The notes below the pieces were generated by a model. The model searched no databases. It worked only from the letters and a program-made list of their open reading frames with translations, and was not told the DNA's origin. Shown one piece after another: positions 15,394 to 52,483 of a stretch of DNA of 64,000 nucleotides. Numbering within the stretch: the stretch's first letter is position 1; every line of letters begins with the position of its first letter. Origin of the DNA: Candidatus Aenigmatarchaeota archaeon (lineage in GTDB: Archaea > Aenigmatarchaeota > Aenigmatarchaeia > PWEA01); the NCBI GenBank assembly GCA_046539325.1, contig JBKHHD010000006.1, forward strand, positions 3,898 through 67,897, read 5' to 3'. Both the position numbers and the translations under genes were made by a program.

Positions 15394-16977
15394 ATGCCAG
15401 GAAAAACAGCTGAGGAAATGGCACTGGACCAGAAGGAGATTTCTGTTGCCGAGTTCTTTGAGAAGAACAGACACCTCCTTGGGTTCGACAATCCGGCCAA
15501 AGCTCTCATAACTGTGGTAAAGGAAGGTGTTGACAACGCCCTGGACGCTTGTGAAGAAGCAGGGAAGCTACCACACCTTAAGGTAAATATAGACGAGGAA
15601 GGTAAGAACAAGTACAATATATCCCTCAAAGACAACGGTCCTGGAATTGTAAAGGAACAGATGCCCTCAATTTTCGGGAAGCTCCTCTACGGTTCAAAGT
15701 TCCACAGCCGTAAGCAGAGCAGAGGGCAACAGGGAATTGGAATCTCGGCTTCCGTTCTATATTCACAGCTAACCACTGGCAAGCCTGCTATCATTACTTC
15801 AAGGACCGATAAGAATTCACCTCCTAAGAGGTTCAAGCTTAAGATAGATACTGTAGAAAACGAGCCAGAAATACTTGAAGAAGAAGAACTAGAGGATGGC
15901 TTCGAGCCAGGAACTGAAATAACTGTCCATGTCGAAGGCAAATACCTTCAAAGGTACCACTCCGTTGACGAATATCTCAAACAAACAGCTATAGCTAATC
16001 CTTATGCACATATAGAGTATAGTAATCCAGAAGGCGAGGAATACGACTTCAAGAGGGCAGCAAACGAGCTACCTCCGGAGCCAAAGGAGATAAAACCACA
16101 CCCTTACGGCGTAGAGCTGGGCGTACTAGGAAGAATGTTAAAGAACACTGACTCCAACAAGATACTTTCGTTTCTGCAGAACGAGTTTACGAGGGTTGGG
16201 AGGACTTCTGCAGAGGAGATTTGCAGGCTAGCGGAGGTGGATCCTGACAAAAAACCTGATAAGCTTAATCATAGTGAACAAGAGGCAGTGCTCGACGCAA
16301 TGCAGAAAGTAAAGATTCAAAGGCCACCGACGGACTGCCTCTCGCCTATAGGCGCCAAACTGATAAAGAGCGGTCTTGGGAAGGAAATAAACGCGGAGTT
16401 CGTGACTTCTTCAAGCAGGGACCCTGAGGTCTACAGGGGGAATCCGTTCCAGGTTGAGGTAGGGATAGCTTACGGCGGTGAGCTGGAAGAAAGGGAAAAC
16501 GAAAAAGTAAAGATTATGAGATATGCGAACAAAGTACCGCTACTATACCAGGCCTCTTCTTGCGCTATAACAAAGGCTCTGGAGAGGACGGACTGGAAAC
16601 GGTATGGCTTAGAACAGCCTGGAAGCAACGGAACGCCCAAGGGACCTGCAACCATATTCGTACATTTGTGTTCGACCTGGGTACCGTTCACCTCTGAGTC
16701 CAAGGAGTCTATAGCAAGATATCCTAAGATCGTCAAGGAGATAAAGCTCGGTCTTCAGGAATGTGCCCGTGACCTGAAGCGACACCTGTCAAAGAAGCAG
16801 AAAGGGAAGAAGGAGAAGAGGAGGAAGAAGATTTTCAGCAACTACATGCCGCTTGTACTTGAAAACGCTGTAGAACTTACAGGTGAAGGTCAGGATCTAT
16901 CAATAGATCCAATCATGCAAAGAGTTATAGATGAGGAACTTGTGGAAAAAGTAGAGGAAGGTGATGAGGATGAGTGA
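15394..16977 (+). CDS. top6B: DNA topoisomerase VI subunit B
   Basis: [32 protein letters not shown] (GHKL Bergerat fold), GQQGIGISA. Confidence 0.93.
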
Positions 16978-18058
16978 TGAGGAAATATCCGAGAGTCTGA
17001 CGGAAATAGGTGAAACTATAATCCAGAAGGTAAGTAACGATCAGGTTCCGTCGGTTCAAATACCTTCGAGGACAACTTCCAATATAGTCTACGATGAGAA
17101 CGCAAAATGTTACGTGCTTGGTGATAAAAGAACGAACAGGGACGCAGGAAATATAAGGCATGTCAAGAGGCTCGCGCAGATGCTTAAGGTCGCTAGCTTC
17201 TGCAAAAACGAGCTTATGGGCTCTGAGAGGCATGTCACAAAGAGAGAGCTTTATTACATATCAGAGTCCTGGGGCGATAAGCTGAAGTTTAAGACACAGG
17301 ACAGGAGCGACGATCTCGTGGAAGATATAGAAGCTATGATAGGAAGGCCAAGAGAGGATCTAAAGATAAATCCAAAGGCGAAGGGCTCCATATACGGCGA
17401 CATAACTCTGAAGTTCACGAACCCACGTGGAGAAACCATGGAAGTGAACTGCCTCGACTCTGCGGACGGACAGTCTATAGGACCGAGGACATGTGAGGCA
17501 GACATTGTTGAGTGCAATGCGGACAAGGTAATTGCCATAGAAACTGACGGTATGTACAACCGTCTTATGGAGGAGAACGCCCATGAGAAGTTCAACGCTG
17601 TTTTGGTCAACCTAGGAGGACAGGCGACCAGAGCCACGAGGAGGATAATCAAAAGGATAAACGAACTGAAAGATATTCCTGCTTACATCTTTACTGACTC
17701 AGATCCATGGGGACTACACATAGCCATGGTTATCATAGCAGGATCCGCGAAATCAGCCCATATAAACGAAAGGTTAGCAACACCCGATGCAAAGTGGCTT
17801 GGAGTTACGGCTTCAGATATAAAGAACTACAAACTGAGGTCGGACGAGCTAAGGGACGTCGACTTTAAAAGGGTTGATGAGCTGAAGGACGATCCAAGAT
17901 ATGCAAATGATAAAAGGCTCGTAAACGAGCTGAATAGATGGGAAGAAATAGGCAAGAAGTCAGAACAGCAGGCTCTCATGAGGTACGGTTTCGAGTACGT
18001 TGTCGACGAATACCTTCCGGCAAAGCTCGAAGAGCTAGGTGCGCCAGGGTTCAAGTGA
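16961..18058 (+). CDS. top6A: DNA topoisomerase VI subunit A (Spo11 homolog)
   Basis: VTKRELYY catalytic Tyr context, Toprim IAIETDG and FTDSDPWG; overlaps the top6B end. Confidence 0.93.
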
Positions 18059-18104
18059 GGGAATCTTTTAATATTTAAGTTCTAAGAAGGTAAAGGTGTT
18101 ACGG

Positions 18105-18177
18105 GCCCGGATAGCTCAGTAGGTAGAGCGCCACGCTGTTAACGTGGTTGTCGCAGGTTCGAATCCTGCTCCGGGCG
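18105..18177 (+). tRNA. tRNA-Asn(GUU), no intron
   Basis: GCCCGGA-TA-GCTC-AGTAGGTA-GAGC-G-CCACG-CTGTTAA-CGTGG-TTGTC-GCAGG-TTCGAAT-CCTGC-TCCGGGC-G. Confidence 0.93.
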
Positions 18178-18253
18178 CTATTCCCTCTCAAGGTAGCGAC
18201 TATGTTGTATTTTTAGGCACTACATTAAGATAGAAAAATTATTCAAACATAAA

Positions 18254-18607
18254 TTACCCATCGCTACTTGTCAAGTACTCCTCTTTACCTCTTCTGCCCT
18301 CTCTAAGCTCTTCTTGTGTCGCTTCTTCAATTTCCTCGTAATCAGTTTCTAATTCACCGTCCAAAAACTCTTTGTACTTACTTTTACCTGACAAAGGAGA
18401 TTTCCTATAATCAAGTTCAGCTGAATAAAAAGCCTCATTTGCGCTCTCAAATTCCCCATCTTCAAGTTTTCCGAGGGCATCTCTATGTAAGGAACTTTTA
18501 TCAGTTCTCGTTTTGAGTCTTACCTCGATATAGACTTCAGGCGGAAAAATTAAACGGTTAGCCTTGAGGCTACCCCATACGAAAGCTATTCTACATACCT
18601 TTATATA
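18254..18607 (-). other. 117-codon open frame with protein-like composition but no ATG/GTG/TTG start (possible pseudogene or non-canonical start)
   Basis: My translation: ..IAFVWGSLKANRLIFPPEVYIEVRLKTRTDKSSLHRDALGKLEDGEFESANEAFYSAELDYRKSPLSGKSKYKEFLDGELETDYEEIEEATQEELREGRRGKEEYLTSSDG*; absent from the ORF track. Confidence 0.35.
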
Positions 18608-18646
18608 TTAAGGTAAAGTTATTTTACTTAAGCCGGAGGTTGAAAG

Positions 18647-18901
18647 GTGCCTAACAAAATAGACGAAGACGAGGTTTCTGGAATAGACAAAGAAATATTA
18701 GAGATTCTAACGAAGGAAAAGGATCCAATAACAACTTATAGGATTGCTAAAAAAATCGATGTCTCCTGGTCAACTGCCAATACCCATTTGAAGGACCTTC
18801 AGATAGAGGGTCTAGTAGAATCAAAGGAAGAGGAAAATAAGGGCAAGAAATCAAGGGTCTGGTGGGTAGAACAAGACAGCTTGGATAAGTTCTTGAAATA
18901 A
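18647..18901 (+). CDS. small winged-helix DNA-binding protein
   Basis: GTG start after GGAGGT; ILEILTKEKDPITTYRIAKKIDVSWSTANTHLKDLQIEGLVE is a wHTH pattern. Confidence 0.65.
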   Translation: MPNKIDEDEVSGIDKEILEILTKEKDPITTYRIAKKIDVSWSTANTHLKDLQIEGLVESKEEENKGKKSRVWWVEQDSLDKFLK

Positions 18902-18908
18902 AAGTAAA

Positions 18909-18980
18909 GGGTGGGGCAGGCTCCAAAGAGCCCGGCTCGGAACACCCCCATGGTCCGAGAAATACGTGTACACCCCACCT
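18909..18980. ncRNA. candidate structured RNA element (closing stem plus two hairpins)
   Basis: GGTGGGG(18910-16)/CCCCACC(18973-79) encloses GGCTC-CAAA-GAGCC and CTCGGA-12nt-TCCGAG; a GC-rich island in AT-rich spacer, followed by TTTTT. Confidence 0.3.
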
Positions 18981-19087
18981 ATGCACTATTTTTACCAACC
19001 AATCTATTTAAGCTTTTCCCAAAACAAGCTAACCTTTTTATATCAATGTATAAATATATGAAGATAGAAAGAGATCTGGAACAAACT

Positions 19088-19176
19088 CGTGGTCGGGGTT
19101 GAAGATGCTTCTGTGACACCCCCTAAACCCCAAGCAAATAAACTCCAATAGGTGTGGAGGAAATACCCCGACCACG
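19088..19176. ncRNA. candidate structured RNA or 5' leader closed by a perfect 12-bp stem
   Basis: CGTGGTCGGGGT(19088-99)/ACCCCGACCACG(19165-76); TATAAATA box at 19049-56 about 30 nt upstream; lies 59 nt before the radical-SAM ATG. Confidence 0.3.
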
Positions 19177-19234
19177 TCCCCAACATATTTCTTGTACCAT
19201 GAAGAATTTAACCTCTCTTGAATAAGATAAGGTA

Positions 19235-43972: not shown

Positions 43973-44055
43973 TAGCCCCGCCAGGATTCGAACCTGGGCC
44001 ATGAGGTCCAGAACCTCACATCCTTAGCCATTTTTGACCGCTAGACTACGGGGCT
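43973..44055 (-). tRNA. tRNA-Gln(CUG) with an oversized (19-nt) D-loop, possible ~10-nt insert
   Basis: AGCCCCG-TA-GTCT-AGCGGTCAAAAATGGCTAA-GGAT-G-TGAGG-TTCTGGA-CCTCA-TGGC-CCAGG-TTCGAAT-CCTGG-CGGGGCT-A. Confidence 0.8.
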
Positions 44056-44138
44056 CCGTTTATCCGTGCTATACTTAATTAAACTCACTTTTATAAACTT
44101 GAAGGTAAAAGTTCTTCTTGTCTCAAGGAGGTGTTAAT

Positions 44139-44573
44139 ATGCCGGTAATAGGTGTCAATATCAGGAACATCAACTCGGAAAGAGGAGAAAACGTAGGTGG
44201 CAATCTCAAGGTCAACAATACACCCAAGATCAAGGGTGTAAAGATAAAGGAAGTGGGTAACATCAACAAGGAGGCACTTTCGATAGACTTTGAGTACACC
44301 TGCAAATACTCAAAGGAAGACAGTGATGAGTCTGTTGCAGAGATAAACATAGGCGGAGAAGTGCTTTTTATGACCGATGACCCCCAGAGTGTAGTGGAAA
44401 ACTGGGAGGAAAACAAGGACCTACCCGAAGAAATAGTCATACCAACAATCAACAGCGTCATGAGAAAGTCTCTTACGAAAGCCATAGACATATCGGAGTC
44501 ACTTCAAGTACCGCCACCGATAAGGTTCCCGAAGGCAAAGAAAAAGTCTGATAGTGCTCGATACATAGGATAA
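44139..44573 (+). CDS. hypothetical protein
   Basis: ATG 44139 lies 6 nt after AGGAGGTG (track ORF starts TTG 44118); 144 aa, no family recognised. Confidence 0.55.
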   Translation: MPVIGVNIRNINSERGENVGGNLKVNNTPKIKGVKIKEVGNINKEALSIDFEYTCKYSKEDSDESVAEINIGGEVLFMTDDPQSVVENWEENKDLPEEIVIPTINSVMRKSLTKAIDISESLQVPPPIRFPKAKKKSDSARYIG

Positions 44574-44676
44574 ACTCCTTAAAATCTTTTATTTTTACTT
44601 TAAATTTATTTAATTTCTTTTTATTCCAATTAAATCCTTTAAATGTATTTATAGTTCTTATAAGCCTATTAAAACG

Positions 44677-44717
44677 TCGTGAGGGTTACCACTAACTCTC
44701 ACATTTTCGTGAGTTTT
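44677..44717. repeat. three GTGAG-type boxes (forward, reverse, forward) in an AT-rich convergent spacer
   Basis: TCGTGAGGGTT 44677-87; AACTCTCACATT 44694-705 (complement = AATGTGAGAGTT); TCGTGAGTTTT 44707-17. Confidence 0.7.
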
Positions 44718-44772
44718 GTAAAAATTTACTAAAAAATATATTTTATTAAATATGTTCTATAATATATAATTT

Positions 44773-44828
44773 AAGAAAAATATGTAGAAAAAAATGTTAT
44801 AACAAATATAGTTAAAGAAAAATATGTA
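44773..44828. repeat. 14-nt direct repeat AAGAAAAATATGTA x2 (44773-86, 44815-28)
   Basis: Read directly; the AT-rich context lowers its significance. Confidence 0.6.
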
Positions 44829-44845
44829 TAAACATATATATAGAA

Positions 44846-45370
44846 TCACTTGTTTTTTAGTGCAGTCTTATAAATACTTCTCCATTCATTCGCCAGCTTC
44901 TCTAAATGTGAAGAAAAGGACTTAGAGGGCTTGAGAACCATAAACCATCCCCTTCCAGGATCGGACTCTACCGCTTCTCTTTCCCTTTGAAGTATACCGA
45001 ATTTGACCAGTTTGGGTATCACTACGTTATAGGCAGTAGAGGACGGTATACCCTCATTTTCAAGGAAATCAGAAAGTATATCCTTGTCAACGCCATCAGA
45101 ATTCGAGAGCACAAAATCAACAAGCTTCGTGGCATATTTATTACTCCTTTCCTGGTAGTCTTCGGGAAAAATGTGGTTTATGACGTCCTCCAGATCCCAC
45201 CTAATATCCCCATCTATGGAGGGCCAATCCTCGCCTTGAACGGAGGGGAAGAAAAGGCTTTCTTTGCTTTTCAGTGTTTCGCCCTCAACTGGAACAGGTT
45301 TATCGTTTCCCTTGGAAATTTTATCACCATATTGGAAGATTTGTGTTTCACAACGTTTCGTTATAATTAT
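44846..45370 (-). CDS. winged-helix DNA-binding protein; frame is open well upstream of the only canonical (GTG 45112) start
   Basis: C-terminal wHTH (GIPSSTAYNVVIPKLVKFGILQRE). The frame stays open to 45436 and reads protein-like (..ETQIFQYGDKISKGNDKPVPVEGETLKSKESLFFPSVQGEDWPSIDGDIRWDLEDVINHIFPEDYQERSNKYATKLVDF-VLSNSDG..). AGGAG lies 7 nt upstream of ATA-ATT-ATA at 45370. Confidence 0.5.
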   Translation of the reverse strand: MIITKRCETQIFQYGDKISKGNDKPVPVEGETLKSKESLFFPSVQGEDWPSIDGDIRWDLEDVINHIFPEDYQERSNKYATKLVDFVLSNSDGVDKDILSDFLENEGIPSSTAYNVVIPKLVKFGILQREREAVESDPGRGWFMVLKPSKSFSSHLEKLANEWRSIYKTALKNK

Positions 45371-45512
45371 GGAGTTTCTCCTAAATAAAAGTTTACAACA
45401 TATCGTTATTGAACAAGAAAATATGGATTGAGACCCCTAGGGAACCAAGCAAAATATACCCAAAAACCGGAACCCATGTAATCTGGTTTATCAAATCGTT
45501 GTGCAACAGAAT

Positions 45513-45860
45513 TTACTCCTCTTCAGATTCTTCATCCTCTTCTTCAGAATCCTCACTGGAATCTTCGTCGGATTCCTCTATCTTTCTCTCAAACTTTCTG
45601 ACAAGCCCCTCCAGATCATGGGCTATTTCCTCTCCGTCGTCAGTAAGCTCAATAAGCTTCACCCTCCCTTCCTTGCTGAACTCCACCAGTTCAAGTTCCT
45701 GGAATTTGTCAAGAACCTTGATAGTATGTGAATATGTGCAGTCAACGCCTTTACTTACTTCCGTCGCATAGTTGGGGTTATCGCCCTTTTTGAGAAAAAC
45801 AAGCATTTCAGCCGGCTTCTCCTGTAGAAATAATTCCTTGAAAATTTCCTTGCCCGGCAC
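45513..45860 (-). CDS. winged-helix transcriptional regulator with acidic C-terminal tail
   Basis: GTG start; NPNYATEVSKGVDCTYSHTIKVLDKFQELELVEF wHTH pattern; the tail is SDEDSSEDSEEEDEESEEE. Confidence 0.65.
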   Translation of the reverse strand: MPGKEIFKELFLQEKPAEMLVFLKKGDNPNYATEVSKGVDCTYSHTIKVLDKFQELELVEFSKEGRVKLIELTDDGEEIAHDLEGLVRKFERKIEESDEDSSEDSEEEDEESEEE

Positions 45861-46034
45861 TTATCACACCTAGGTATAATTACTTAATCAAAGTATTTAA
45901 ATATTTAATTTTATGTTTTATGATATATATTTTTAATAATATATTTGTTTACAGGTATTTTAATAAAAATATTATATAAAATATACTTTTCTAAACATTG
46001 GTTAAAAAATATAAACTAAAAAACATATTTTTTA

Positions 46035-49391: not shown

Positions 49392-49649
49392 TTAAATTAT
49401 GTCGTTCTCAGACACAATTACGAAGTCCCCCACTGAGTTTATCGCAGAAAACGGAATCAGATGCCTTCCTTGGTCATCCATTTCTACTTGAAGATCGGAG
49501 ACATGCTTTGTAGGCTCTGTAAGAACTATGTTCATAAGTTCTCCTGAGTCCGTTATGAAAGAAACATCGCCGACTGTGCCGAATTTTTTCCCTGCTTCTT
49601 CAGAAACAACTACCTTTCCCATAAGTTTTTTTCCTCTTATATCTGCCAT
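49392..49649 (-). CDS. PRC-barrel domain protein
   Basis: LMGKVVVSEEAGKKFGTVGDV...IPFSAINSVGDFVIV pattern. Confidence 0.7.
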   Translation of the reverse strand: MADIRGKKLMGKVVVSEEAGKKFGTVGDVSFITDSGELMNIVLTEPTKHVSDLQVEMDDQGRHLIPFSAINSVGDFVIVSENDII

Positions 49650-49689: not shown

Positions 49690-50355
49690 TTACAGAAGAA
49701 GTACGAGCAAACTTATCATCCCACCTGAAAAAGTTGCAGCCAGGTTCACTTCGGATTTGGTCATATAACCCCTTCTCTCCAGTGTAGCTCCAAGTATTGA
49801 GTCCATGTGACAGCCCATGAATCCACCTATAAAGGGAGCAAGGATGCCAATTCCAAAAAGGAAATGGGCTATAATAGCCACAAAAAGGGCACCTATAGCC
49901 GAAAAAACTGTCCCAAGTGGCGAAACTGCTCCGTTTGTGCCGGGTTCAACCTTCTTCCAGGTGGTTATAAGTCTGGCTCTTTTAGAGAAAACTCCAACCT
50001 CCGAAGCAAGGGTATCGGCCATGGCTGTTGATACAGAACCGGCAAACCCAACGGGGCTGGATATAATCGCAAAGAATGCAGGCGATGAGCCGTTGCCTAA
50101 TATATTTTGAATGTTTCTCGTGCCGTTCTCTTCTTCCTCCACACCGATCTTCTTCTTTCTGTCATATCTCCACTTTGTGCCAGCATAACCGACAACTAGA
50201 AAGGAAACTAAAATAAATATCCATGCTGGATCGTTTAGGGCCCATATCAATGATCCGATGATAAAGGCAGTAAGGCTGGCTTTAGCTGAGAGAACCTCTG
50301 TCTTCCATGTAACAAGTGCTAATGCTGAACAACCTGCAAAGACTTCTAGCATCAA
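49690..50355 (-). CDS. DUF92/TMEM19-family integral membrane protein
   Basis: Multi-TM; GNGSSPA and TNGAVSPLGT motifs as recalled for TIGR00297. Confidence 0.65.
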   Translation of the reverse strand: MMLEVFAGCSALALVTWKTEVLSAKASLTAFIIGSLIWALNDPAWIFILVSFLVVGYAGTKWRYDRKKKIGVEEEENGTRNIQNILGNGSSPAFFAIISSPVGFAGSVSTAMADTLASEVGVFSKRARLITTWKKVEPGTNGAVSPLGTVFSAIGALFVAIIAHFLFGIGILAPFIGGFMGCHMDSILGATLERRGYMTKSEVNLAATFSGGMISLLVLLL

Positions 50356-50364
50356 GTAGTTATA

Positions 50365-51453
50365 TCAGGTGTCCACTAATAAATTTTTGGTCTTAGTGTC
50401 TAAGAAGTAGACGTAGCCCTTTCCTCTCTTCTTCCTTTCGATTATGTCCTCCTTGAGCAGCCTCCTTAATATATTGTTAACGGACCTGACGGCATGCTGT
50501 TTCGTCTTATAGCTGTCTGTTCCAAGTTTCTCGGCTATATCTGACGGGAATAGCTCATCTTCCTCGGAAAGTATCTTTACTATCTCCCTCTGCTTGTAGG
50601 GAAGATCTTTAAGGAAGTCTCTTCCCTTCTCCTTGCTCTCTTCCTCCTTCTCCATATCGTCCTCAAAGCCCTTAAGCTCATCTAATTCCTTCTTATCGTT
50701 CTCAAGGGCCCAGTTTATCATCTTGTCACATATCTTGAGAACTTCACGCGGGAAACCTCCTGTCTTCTCGTAAATTTGTTTCACACAGTCCTCTGTGAAG
50801 GGTGAAATACCCTCTCCTCCTGCGTCTTCTATCCTTCTTCTTATAAGGTCCCTTGTTTCTTCTTCATCCAAGGTAGTAAGGTCTATTCTCGTCGTGACTC
50901 TACTCTTAAGCGTTTCAACGTTCTCCTTGAGTTTTTCATCAATCGCAGGCAAGCCTGCAAATATGAACTGTATTTCATCGACCTGATCAGTTATAGTTCT
51001 CAACCACTGCAAGACCTTAACATCTGATTCATGGGCCTCATCAACCATTAGTAGAAGGTTTTCATTAAGACGATCGCCGAGATAATCTGAAAGATCGTGA
51101 ATACTCACATTCACGCCAAAAATCCTTTCCCAAAGTGAAGGCTTTATTTTTTCCGTGAATATGTCAACAATTTCATCGTATTGCGGGGGCTTAGATAGGT
51201 ATAGAACCTCAAAGTTATCATTGAACTTTTCCTCAACCAGCTTAAGAAGGGTAGTTTTTCCTGCTCCTGTAGCACCCGACACCAACGCAAACTTCCTATT
51301 TTCTTGGATATGGTACGTAAGCTTCCTAAGTTCCTTATCGTATCCAACGAACAAATCAGGATCAATTTTCAGTGTGAAGGGATTTCTCTCAAGGCCCACC
51401 TCCTCAAACCACTCACTTACCTCCTCTTCATAGCTGTTTAACATTAATTTCAC
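50365..51453 (-). CDS. AAA+ ATPase (ExeA/AAA_22-like core) with C-terminal winged helix; Orc1/Cdc6-like architecture
   Basis: NPFTLKIDPDLFVGYDKEL, Walker A GATGAGKTT, Walker B LLMVDEAHE, GGFPREV, C-terminal wHTH (REIVKIL..FPSDIAEKLG..RRLLKEDIIERKKRGKGYVYF); GTG 51453 or ATG 51444 start. Confidence 0.75.
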   Translation of the reverse strand: MKLMLNSYEEEVSEWFEEVGLERNPFTLKIDPDLFVGYDKELRKLTYHIQENRKFALVSGATGAGKTTLLKLVEEKFNDNFEVLYLSKPPQYDEIVDIFTEKIKPSLWERIFGVNVSIHDLSDYLGDRLNENLLLMVDEAHESDVKVLQWLRTITDQVDEIQFIFAGLPAIDEKLKENVETLKSRVTTRIDLTTLDEEETRDLIRRRIEDAGGEGISPFTEDCVKQIYEKTGGFPREVLKICDKMINWALENDKKELDELKGFEDDMEKEEESKEKGRDFLKDLPYKQREIVKILSEEDELFPSDIAEKLGTDSYKTKQHAVRSVNNILRRLLKEDIIERKKRGKGYVYFLDTKTKNLLVDT

Positions 51454-51499
51454 GCCTTATTCATTTATTTTAAACCTTTTTCATACACAAATTAAACAC

Positions 51500-51770
51500 A
51501 TGTGTGAATGTTTTGTGAATATAATGTTAACTTAAAATGAATTTAATATTTAAACGTTTAATTTAACGTGGTTTTAATGAGATATTCACATACTGTAACA
51601 TCTTCATTTCATACTTCACGTTTAATTAACCCTTTCATGTGAATGTAACGTTACTCAATATTACACGAAATTAATCACGTTACATAAAAATGAAGTTTAA
51701 ATGAAGTTCACGTTACCCTCAAATTACATTCACATAGCATTCATAAACATTCACTAGACATTCACGCACG
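51500..51770. repeat. repeat family A: GTGAATGT/ACATTCAC in opposed orientations, including four helically phased copies
   Basis: + copies at 51504, 51515, 51639; complement copies at 51583, 51726, 51737 (GCATTCAT), 51747, 51758; palindrome GTAACGTTAC 51645-54; CACGTTAC at 51676 and 51709; tandem AATGAAGTT(T/C)A 51689-51710. Confidence 0.8.
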
Positions 51771-51924
51771 CTAGAATCTACGTTAATTTGGGTTAATTAA
51801 GATGTGAAGGACTGTTACTCGGGAAAAATAGCCCCTTTACCTTAACCAATGACGTCTGAGGGGAATTTTTTTCTAGAAAAGGTAAGACTTGTGGATAAAT
51901 GACCCATTTCATGGTTAAGTTATA

Positions 51925-52190
51925 GAAATGTGAGTGTTTTACGATCCAGACCAGGGGAAATTGGACAAATTATGTACAAATAGGGCATGTGTGGAGGTCA
52001 AAATGTGAGAGTTCTGAACTGAGTAAGTTACCAGATAAGCATGAGAAATACATAAAATGTGAGATTTAAGCCCGTGGAAGGCAAATATAGGTAAATTGTG
52101 AGTGTTATACTAGAAAATAATGTGTGAAATGTTCTAAATGTGAGTATTAACTTAGGAAAATGAGACTATCAATTATCTGTGAGTATATTT
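51925..52190. repeat. repeat family B: AA(A)TGTGAG(T/A), six co-oriented copies
   Basis: 51927, 52002, 52056, 52094 (AATTGTGAG), 52137, 52177 (CTGTGAG; inside the 3' end of the next CDS). Confidence 0.8.
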
Positions 52191-52483
52191 CTAGCTCGAA
52201 GCAAATAGTCCACTGGTTTTCCTGAATCAAGCTGTTCTCGAATGCCATCTTTCAATTTTATGAGCCTTATTCCGAAGTATTTGCCGTCTCCATCCTTTGC
52301 TCCCTTTGATTCAACTATAGAATCAATAACTTCCTCTATATAATAATGAACGGTAGATAAAGGCACAGAAGACTCTCTAGATAGCTTCCTTAGCCAAATA
52401 CCGTCAGGATATTTCCTTAAAGTTCCTACAAGGTCTTCTACTTTGTCTAAGTCTAGGCCATTTTGATTTTTATCATTAGTCAT
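52169..52483 (-). CDS. small winged-helix DNA-binding protein
   Basis: GIWLRKLSRESSVPLSTVHYYIEEV wHTH pattern, 104 aa. Confidence 0.6.
   Translation of the reverse strand: MTNDKNQNGLDLDKVEDLVGTLRKYPDGIWLRKLSRESSVPLSTVHYYIEEVIDSIVESKGAKDGDGKYFGIRLIKLKDGIREQLDSGKPVDYLLRARNILTDN

Follow-up and report, generated by a model that had tools for sequence, protein, structure and literature searches.

Archaeal chromosomes with several origins carry each origin beside its own initiator gene, and in archaea an Orc-like gene next to a repeat-rich gap usually marks an origin. In iteron plasmids Rep binds direct repeats, and inverted repeats at the rep promoter provide autoregulation. In Escherichia coli oriC the DnaA sites form arrays, with 2 bp between sites. 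For the DPANN archaea, which are uncultured or hard to grow, the start of replication and the segregation of the small chromosomes are almost unknown. Here we describe a gap of 715 bp (positions 51454–52168) in a stretch of 64,000 nucleotides from a Candidatus Aenigmatarchaeota archaeon (contig JBKHHD010000006.1; the whole stretch is referred to below as the window). It is filled with short repeats based on the half-site GTGAA, and the gene that it immediately precedes encodes an AAA+ ATPase with a winged helix at its C terminus. The data firmly establish a conserved cis-element of helically phased half-sites, observed across the phylum in linkage to this one gene, the product of which is predicted to have an Orc1/Cdc6-like architecture. 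Our preferred interpretation, to which we assign a probability of about 0.4, is that the array is the iteron-type module of the adjacent gene and acts as an auxiliary origin with its own initiator, beside a canonical origin formed by orc1 and origin recognition boxes (ORBs).

Related loci were collected by scanning one genome per GTDB species, which gave 211 encoding stretches; 80 were kept, all of them from metagenome-assembled genomes (MAGs) of Aenigmatarchaeota, with flanks of ±6 kb (loci of about 13 kb). A gap of 300–900 bp precedes the AAA+ gene in most of these loci and is filled with GTGAA. The 400-bp stretch of each locus that is densest in this half-site, with up to 34 copies, precedes the AAA+ gene in 72 of the 80 loci, in most of them immediately; both synteny and motif are conserved in related genomes. 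In 76 loci YGTGAA reaches 26 per kb over the 600 bp that precede the gene, compared with 1.6 per kb in the rest of each locus; the corresponding values for the window are 15 and 1.1 per kb. Individual loci contain 10–38 units, spread across 300–450 bp, with the consensus T-T-C/T-A-C/T-GTGAA-N-W-T (core form R-Y-GTGAA-N-W-T). The nearest neighbour on the same strand is 11 bp away in 328 cases, the runner-up spacing accounting for 56. The original prediction had described helically phased repeats next to an AAA+/winged-helix gene, and this description extends to the phylum, where the 11-bp spacing dominates and the pairing with the gene is kept in about 72 of the 80 loci. Non-palindromic units run mainly head-to-tail in one direction (656 versus 293). 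The palindrome TTCACGTGAA occurs about 182–189 times among the loci, and the share of palindromes is highest in the last 50 bp before the AAA+ gene.

No second GTGAA cluster is present in the 64-kb window beyond the AAA+ gene and its upstream region. When metagenomes were scanned for the array sequence the matches were mostly chance singles; among 15 dense arrays, ten adjoin the AAA+ gene or the 104-aa gene on the other side of the gap, two are cut by a contig end and three are unrelated small clusters. Three small interior clusters, in loci L109, L124 and L158, have a different, parS-like AATTTCACGTGAAAT context and no related gene. Relatives of the AAA+ protein are found almost only in Aenigmatarchaeota (DPANN) MAGs, in which annotators currently name the gene only 'AAA family ATPase' or 'ExeA'. 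Across the sampled Aenigmatarchaeota the module is a conserved single-locus pair of a protein and its probable DNA target; on the complete chromosome CP070662.1 the array lies near 461–462 kb. It is best regarded as the initiator-plus-iteron theme with a new recognition unit: the motif matches no ORB consensus, as had been stated earlier, and no description of the GTGAA-array module was found in the searched literature. We note that loci L019 and L020 are near-identical and have a 252-aa ORF (open reading frame) between the array and the AAA+ gene; one of them comes from a bin named 'Candidatus Aminicenantia bacterium' and is probably a mis-binned archaeal contig.

In the window the gap is bounded by two minus-strand ORFs and lies upstream of the AAA+ gene and downstream of the 104-aa gene. 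It is the longest ORF-free gap of the window, in agreement with the original prediction. An apparently longer rival of 1176 bp (18059–19234) was rejected, as it holds a tRNA (18105–18177) and an 84-aa ORF with a winged helix–turn–helix (wHTH). This winged-helix-like ORF is at 18647–18901, and the non-coding stretches beside it are about 470 and 330 bp long. The AAA+ gene probably begins at ATG 51444, a codon that is conserved in the six relatives of an alignment (A2) of the window with six loci of 72–91% protein identity; in that case the gap would measure about 724 bp.

All of the motifs that had been listed for the gap were recovered in place by motif search. GTGAATGT/GTGAATAT is found on the plus strand at 51504, 51515 and 51639 and as its complement on the minus strand at 51582–51589, 51726, 51747 and 51758. 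GTAACGTTAC is at 51645, CACGTTAC is on the plus strand at 51676 and 51709, and AATGAAGTT is at 51689 and 51700. TGTGAG occurs on the plus strand only, at 51929, 52004, 52058, 52097, 52139 and 52178. Both repeat families far exceed composition-matched expectation. GTGAATRT has 15 matches in 64 kb compared with 2.9 expected, seven of them inside a single stretch of 262 bp, and CTCACAWTT has six compared with 1.4 expected, five of them in the gap and all in the same orientation. When the 715-bp region was shuffled 1000 times with its dinucleotides preserved, the mean counts were 0.66 for GTGAAT (observed, 7) and 0.32 for TGTGAG (observed, 5), and no shuffle reached either observed value; 15 of the 1000 shuffles contained any 8-mer at five or more copies. 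YGTGAA/TTCACR triplets (three copies each) are also present inside the AAA+ coding sequence at 50743–50799 and 51096–51159, and these may be chance occurrences or extra binding sites.

The A2 alignment indicates that the proximal 330 bp or so are conserved in blocks and the middle of the gap poorly, with CTCACATTT forming conserved distal islands. Just 5' of the promoter, the tandem units TGTGAATGT and TGTGAATAT lie 11 bp apart on the plus strand (51503..51522). An AT-rich block with the palindrome TTAAACGTTTAA (51517..51570) is kept in 7 relatives and is a candidate for either an unwinding element or a further protein site; only five 50-mers of the window are less stable than its stretch 51517–51566. 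The central units (51582..51716), which comprise ATATTCAC (51582), TTCACG (51615), TGTGAATGTAACGTTAC (51638–51654) and AACGTGAA-type units that read as CACGTTAC on the plus strand, are invariant or nearly so among the relatives. A head-to-tail array of four units follows on the minus strand at 51726..51765 (ACATTCAC, GCATTCAT, ACATTCAC, ACATTCAC; spacing 11/10/11 bp) and is kept in L001–L003. The clade of the window has a sparser form of the array, with the variants GTGAAT(G/A)T and AACGT(G/T), in which inverted units flank the conserved AT-rich block. The opposed copies that had been described around a core at 51640–51720 are correctly placed, but this layout is not general, since units across the phylum have mainly one orientation. 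Inverted boxes around AT-rich DNA are seen in the window's clade (at 51517–51566); in the 75 loci compared the region shows no extra AT-richness, and across the phylum the units mostly share one orientation.

The second repeat family of the gap, here called family B, consists of six co-oriented copies of CTCACA(T/A)T(T) on the minus strand (51926..52185; plus-strand reading A(A/T)TGTGAG), with a spacing of about 39–75 bp; the last copy sits within the 3' end of the 104-aa ORF. The original prediction of two families is correct in that both are real and enriched, but judged from their motifs they are variants of one TCAC(A/G) core. Family B is restricted to the window and L001–L016/L018, where its 2–6 copies share one strand and lie between −240 and −800; at least three copies are present in 16 loci, and the 40 loci listed have no copy on the opposite strand. 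The loci that bear it are those that also keep the co-oriented 104-aa gene upstream. A similar sequence, GTTTAASTCTCACATTT, is present in other intergenic regions of L081, so family B is perhaps a more general element, and CTCACATTT may not belong to the array but be a signal used generally in Aenigmatarchaeota. In the same distant relative a family-B-like GTTTAA(C/G)TCTCACATTT recurs in AT-rich intergenic DNA at 16346–16362, 16473–16490 and 17758–17775.

The orientation of family B is the one feature that could suit an RNA. Every copy lies on the sense strand of both flanking genes and 3' of the 104-aa ORF, as might be expected if the gap were a long untranslated region or a non-coding RNA in which the repeats act as RNA. 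We consider this reading, which the original prediction had also named, to be very improbable. The gap has no Rfam match (gathering threshold or E ≤ 1) and folds no better than shuffled sequences (z = −0.11). The units of the first family (family A) occur on both strands and as DNA palindromes, and the middle of the gap is unconserved, including a weakly conserved spacer (51780..51920) that lacks an Rfam match or excess RNA structure.

The AAA+ gene (ORF 50365–51453, minus strand; likely start ATG 51444) encodes 362 residues, which were assigned using Pfam, AlphaFold2 (AF2) and hhalign. Pfam identifies an AAA_22 domain (51 bits compared with a cut-off of 27) and a Penicillinase_R (BlaI/MecI-type) winged helix. 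Among NCBIfam models the ExeA-like TIGR03015 scores highest, at 92.4 bits, far below its cut-off of 324.5. The Orc1/Cdc6 model TIGR02928 scores 18.9 bits (E = 5.6e-4) against a cut-off of 181 and therefore fails, and neither Cdc6_lid (PF22703) nor WHD_Cdc6 (PF09079) matches the protein of the window. A search of the PDB with a profile of the family gave P-loop-level matches only. Structure prediction presents a different picture. Full-length Foldseek searches with the AF2 model (pLDDT 86) place archaeal Orc1/Cdc6 structures at the top, namely 2qby_A (E = 1.6e-12), 1w5t, 1fnn and 2v1u (1e-12 to 1e-10 for the top Orc1/Cdc6 structures), ahead of eukaryotic ORC/Cdc6 and, later, STAND, RuvB, MuB and TnsC. 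The three-part fold of Orc1/Cdc6, consisting of an AAA+ base, a lid and a C-terminal winged helix, is predicted to be co-linear with that of the solved structures, and an hhalign comparison with Sso Orc1-1 reaches a probability of 94.8% across 269 columns that cover the AAA+, lid and winged-helix domains. Orc1/Cdc6 initiators carry extra helices between strands beta-2 and beta-3 (the initiator-specific motif); read from the model alone, the protein would have three helices (91–101, 106–111 and 117–127) between strands E81–85 and E132–136. Little or no variation is seen across the phylum in Walker A, Walker B, R184, R235, the GGFPR sensor or the winged-helix helix KQHAVRSVNNILRRL. On sequence and model the protein is best described as a remote, co-linear homologue of Orc1/Cdc6 which is not a member by the family sequence models, and which bridges the ExeA-type ATPases and the Orc1/Cdc6 architecture.

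By sequence, the N-terminal motif and the ATPase domain are closest to the ExeA/GspA AAA_22 ATPases (COG3267, TIGR03015). Unlike the protein described here, with its C-terminal winged helix and adjoining DNA repeat array, ExeA has a peptidoglycan-binding domain and a role in secretion. Near relatives outside the family have TPR and zinc-ribbon or peptidoglycan-binding domains in place of the winged helix; the closest of the ATPases outside it (P0161–P0194) have an N-terminal TPR and zinc ribbon and lack a winged helix. The same ATPase module thus recurs, joined to a protein-binding head.

The putative core promoter of the AAA+ gene (51449..51474, minus strand) contains a TATA-like element, TTTAAAATAA (51465–51474), centred about 26 nt 5' of the ATG. 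A TATA element about 26 nt from the start codon is the geometry of leaderless archaeal mRNAs, and the spacing suggests that the AAA+ mRNA is leaderless. A GTGAA unit at 51449–51453, between the TATA element and the ATG, is invariant in all seven aligned sequences (A2 columns 796–800) and is likely to be an auto-operator. As in RepA, RepE and pi plasmids, phased direct repeats lie by the gene of a putative initiator and inverted or palindromic sites by its promoter, and the reading of the repeats would be by a winged helix; the term iteron-type control region used in the original prediction is fair in view of the direct repeats by the gene and their inverted version at the promoter. Unlike an iteron plasmid the module is chromosomal, single-copy, phylum-wide and not mobile, its unit measures 11 bp, against about 20 bp in such plasmids, and its protein has an AAA+ motor.

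These promoter sites raise the alternative that the module is purely regulatory, the protein being a non-initiator Orc1-like transcription factor and the array an oversized operator that buffers or autoregulates expression of the protein. Conserved units do overlap the core promoter and the start codon, radA and rpa are kept as neighbours, and there is a precedent in the non-initiator paralogue Orc1-2 of Sulfolobus, a global regulator in the DNA-damage response (PMC6061795, PMC9738581). Orc1-2 resembles the present protein as a second Orc1-like protein alongside a true initiator, but it is a clear Orc1/Cdc6 member whose targets are hexamers scattered among promoters and not a single giant array by its own gene. 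Moreover, 10–38 sites over 300–450 bp are far above the need of an operator, and apart from the AAA+ gene no gene of the window or the 13-kb loci, radA and rpa included, is preceded by a GTGAA cluster. A promoter requires just the proximal 60 bp or so, so the remaining 650 bp or thereabouts must serve another purpose. We therefore regard a solely regulatory role as distinctly unlikely.

In our preferred interpretation, an iteron-type auxiliary origin, the winged helix would read the GTGAA half-site through its recognition helix KQHAVRSVNNILRRL, as suggested by the genetic linkage and the near-invariance of this helix. Because the sites are spaced one helical turn (11 bp) apart, the bound molecules would be aligned on one face of the DNA, and the intact Walker A, Walker B and arginine finger should enable their AAA+ domains to join head-to-tail into an ATP-dependent filament. 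The palindromic TTCACGTGAA sites and the unit between TATA and ATG would allow the protein to repress transcription of its own gene. The filament model is the most economical in view of the phasing, the intact ATPase with its arginine finger and the near-invariant recognition helix. The low-affinity DnaA boxes of E. coli oriC, 9-mers 2 bp apart and hence with 11-bp phasing, offer a parallel in which phased sites guide an AAA+ initiator oligomer, but the protein family and motif are unrelated and the array here has mostly one orientation rather than two opposed halves. An extrachromosomal replicon that was captured may be the ancestor of the module. As a second origin, the module would combine a new recognition code with a very divergent initiator.

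In comparison with archaeal oriC regions (Sulfolobus oriC1–3, Pyrococcus and Methanothermobacter), the array shares a repeat-packed intergenic position directly 5' of a gene for an AAA+/winged-helix protein with a predicted Orc1/Cdc6 fold, an AT-rich stretch among the repeats and likely autoregulation. It differs in its 11-bp GTGAA-core unit, with no ORB or mini-ORB, in its long, mostly one-directional phased arrays, in the failure of the protein to match Orc1/Cdc6 hidden Markov models (HMMs) and in the lack of a skew or gene-orientation signature; in addition, a canonical orc1 with ORB-like repeats is found elsewhere in the phylum. A tblastn search with Sso Orc1-1 (query sequence confirmed as 2qby_A, 824 bits) detected canonical orc1/cdc6 in the related locus L055/L081 and no canonical orc1 in the 64-kb window. 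Protein searches returned many entries named 'ORC1-type DNA replication protein [Ca. Aenigmarchaeota]', and searches of the literature and supplements for the presence or absence of Orc1 in Aenigmatarchaeota found nothing lineage-specific. The proposal that the AAA+ protein is a sole divergent Orc1 replacing the canonical initiator was rejected, canonical orc1 having been found in the phylum.

A number of observations weigh against an origin at the array. The canonical orc1 of L081 (21 kb), which has both Cdc6_lid and WHD_Cdc6 and is followed by a phosphoesterase gene and polB, lies 5 kb from the AAA+/array module, and on contig CAYYKJ010000002.1 a canonical orc1 lies about 28 kb from the AAA+ gene; contig CAZXUR010000002.1 likewise carries both loci. 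The regions upstream of canonical orc1 (L081:4899–5136, L083:2742–3000 and L085:2742–3000) contain ORB-like TTCCAG..GGAAA/TTTCATATGGAA repeats, an AT-rich run and a conserved palindrome, TATAACAGTGTTATAG, and from these features are a good candidate for the primary oriC of the phylum. Exhaustive profile searches place the ATPase within the large ExeA/AAA_22 assemblage, nearer to this than to Orc1/Cdc6. The array units mostly share one orientation, with no consistent switch along the region and no bipolar layout like that of ORB pairs, and in 75 loci the AT content of the array regions does not exceed that of other intergenic DNA. Genes on either side run towards the array, with 60% of coding sequence on the plus strand upstream and 67% on the minus strand downstream, and in the window 43 kb of plus-strand genes point at it. 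The third-codon GC skew across the 80 loci shows no sign change, the differences being about 1–2 standard errors, a weak result given flanks of ±6 kb. No full-length homologue of the AAA+ protein was found in 2.9 million viral contigs. Finally, genomes of less than 1 Mb have hardly any need for a second origin.

None of the composition, orientation or stability tests favours an origin, although these tests are weak owing to the short flanks. The array is not the canonical replication origin of the cell, because Aenigmatarchaeota also have a canonical orc1/cdc6, preceded by an ORB-like, AT-rich region of its own; the textbook oriC layout of ORB elements plus orc1/cdc6 that had been proposed is thus not borne out, as the gene fails the Orc1/Cdc6 models despite its Orc1/Cdc6-like fold, canonical orc1 is separate, genes converge on the array and the third-codon skew does not switch. 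With an ordinary orc1-linked origin candidate in the phylum, the GTGAA module is something additional, for which function as a second origin is possible.

Several of the same observations, together with the neighbouring genes, would also suit a centromere-like or chromosome-organizing site on which the AAA+/winged-helix protein, perhaps with a small wHTH adaptor, forms a filament for segregation or for coupling to division and does not fire replication. The dense head-to-tail 11-bp arrays with one dominant orientation are like those of R1 parC/ParR and tubC/TubR, in which phased tandem repeats flank a promoter and a gene for a small DNA-binding protein is nearby, and neither a consistent unwinding element nor a skew switch is seen. 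The palindrome TTCACGTGAA (for example in the upstream regions of L016, L031 and L055) is identical to the central 10 bp of bacterial parS, TGTTTCACGTGAAACA, as known from the literature. This likeness may be chance, since the 5-bp half-site fixes the palindrome; parS sites are isolated 16-mers, not arrays, and only the 10-bp core matches. On two contigs the array and canonical orc1 are separated by 5 kb and about 28 kb, but this proximity could be detected only because the genes share a contig. Downstream of the AAA+ gene on the minus strand are genes for a DUF92 membrane protein (49690–50355), immediately adjacent, and a PRC-barrel protein (49392–49649), both assigned using Pfam, and the three genes probably share an operon. 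A PRC-barrel gene comes after the AAA+ gene in 52 of 81 loci, and its family has been implicated in archaeal cell division (bioRxiv 10.1101/2023.03.28.534520), although nothing but the family name makes this link. The known partition motors include no AAA+ protein, the adjacent NTPase here is of that class, no ParA, ParM, TubZ or ParB partner is seen in the locus, and the 21-kb locus L081 contains no ParB, ParR or TubZ-like gene. A centromere-like role is in our view unlikely; were it correct, the module would be a new class of partition system. A broader possibility, equally tentative, is a new type of chromosome maintenance in which an ExeA-type AAA+ protein with a winged helix polymerizes on a phased, parS-core-like array, as a non-Orc initiator or as the first AAA+-driven archaeal centromere, beside a canonical Orc1/ORB origin.

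The small wHTH gene that often flanks the array is in the window that of the 104-aa protein (52169..52483, minus strand), modelled by AF2 at pLDDT 85 with MarR/ArsR-like Foldseek matches and no Pfam or NCBIfam match. It adjoins the array in between 30 (HMM) and 57 (BLAST cluster) of 81 loci. As a constant partner of the array it was rejected: arrays persist where the HMM finds no adjacent copy, and its fold is generically MarR/ArsR-like.

The gene order across the phylum is OB-fold gene, LigT, (104-aa wHTH), array, AAA+/winged helix, (kinase-like or DUF92), PRC-barrel, convergent radA and rpa, histone and DUF373, with synteny to rpa and radA in 60–66 of 81 loci. The presence of RadA, RPA and a histone gene within 5 kb, as noted in the original prediction, was confirmed. 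A mobile element or viral replicon was considered and rejected on the basis of the single-copy gene, the phylum-wide synteny and the lack of a homologue in the viral contigs. Elsewhere in the window, an AT-rich island at 44100–46030 (GC about 0.37) beside a tRNA (43973–44055) is the least stable DNA; its ORFs (44118–44573, 44987–45388 and 45409–45771) have no Pfam match, it contains one CTCACATTT at 44698, and it could be either a further regulatory region or an integrated element. A further tRNA match of 155 nt, at 594–748, presumably contains an intron.

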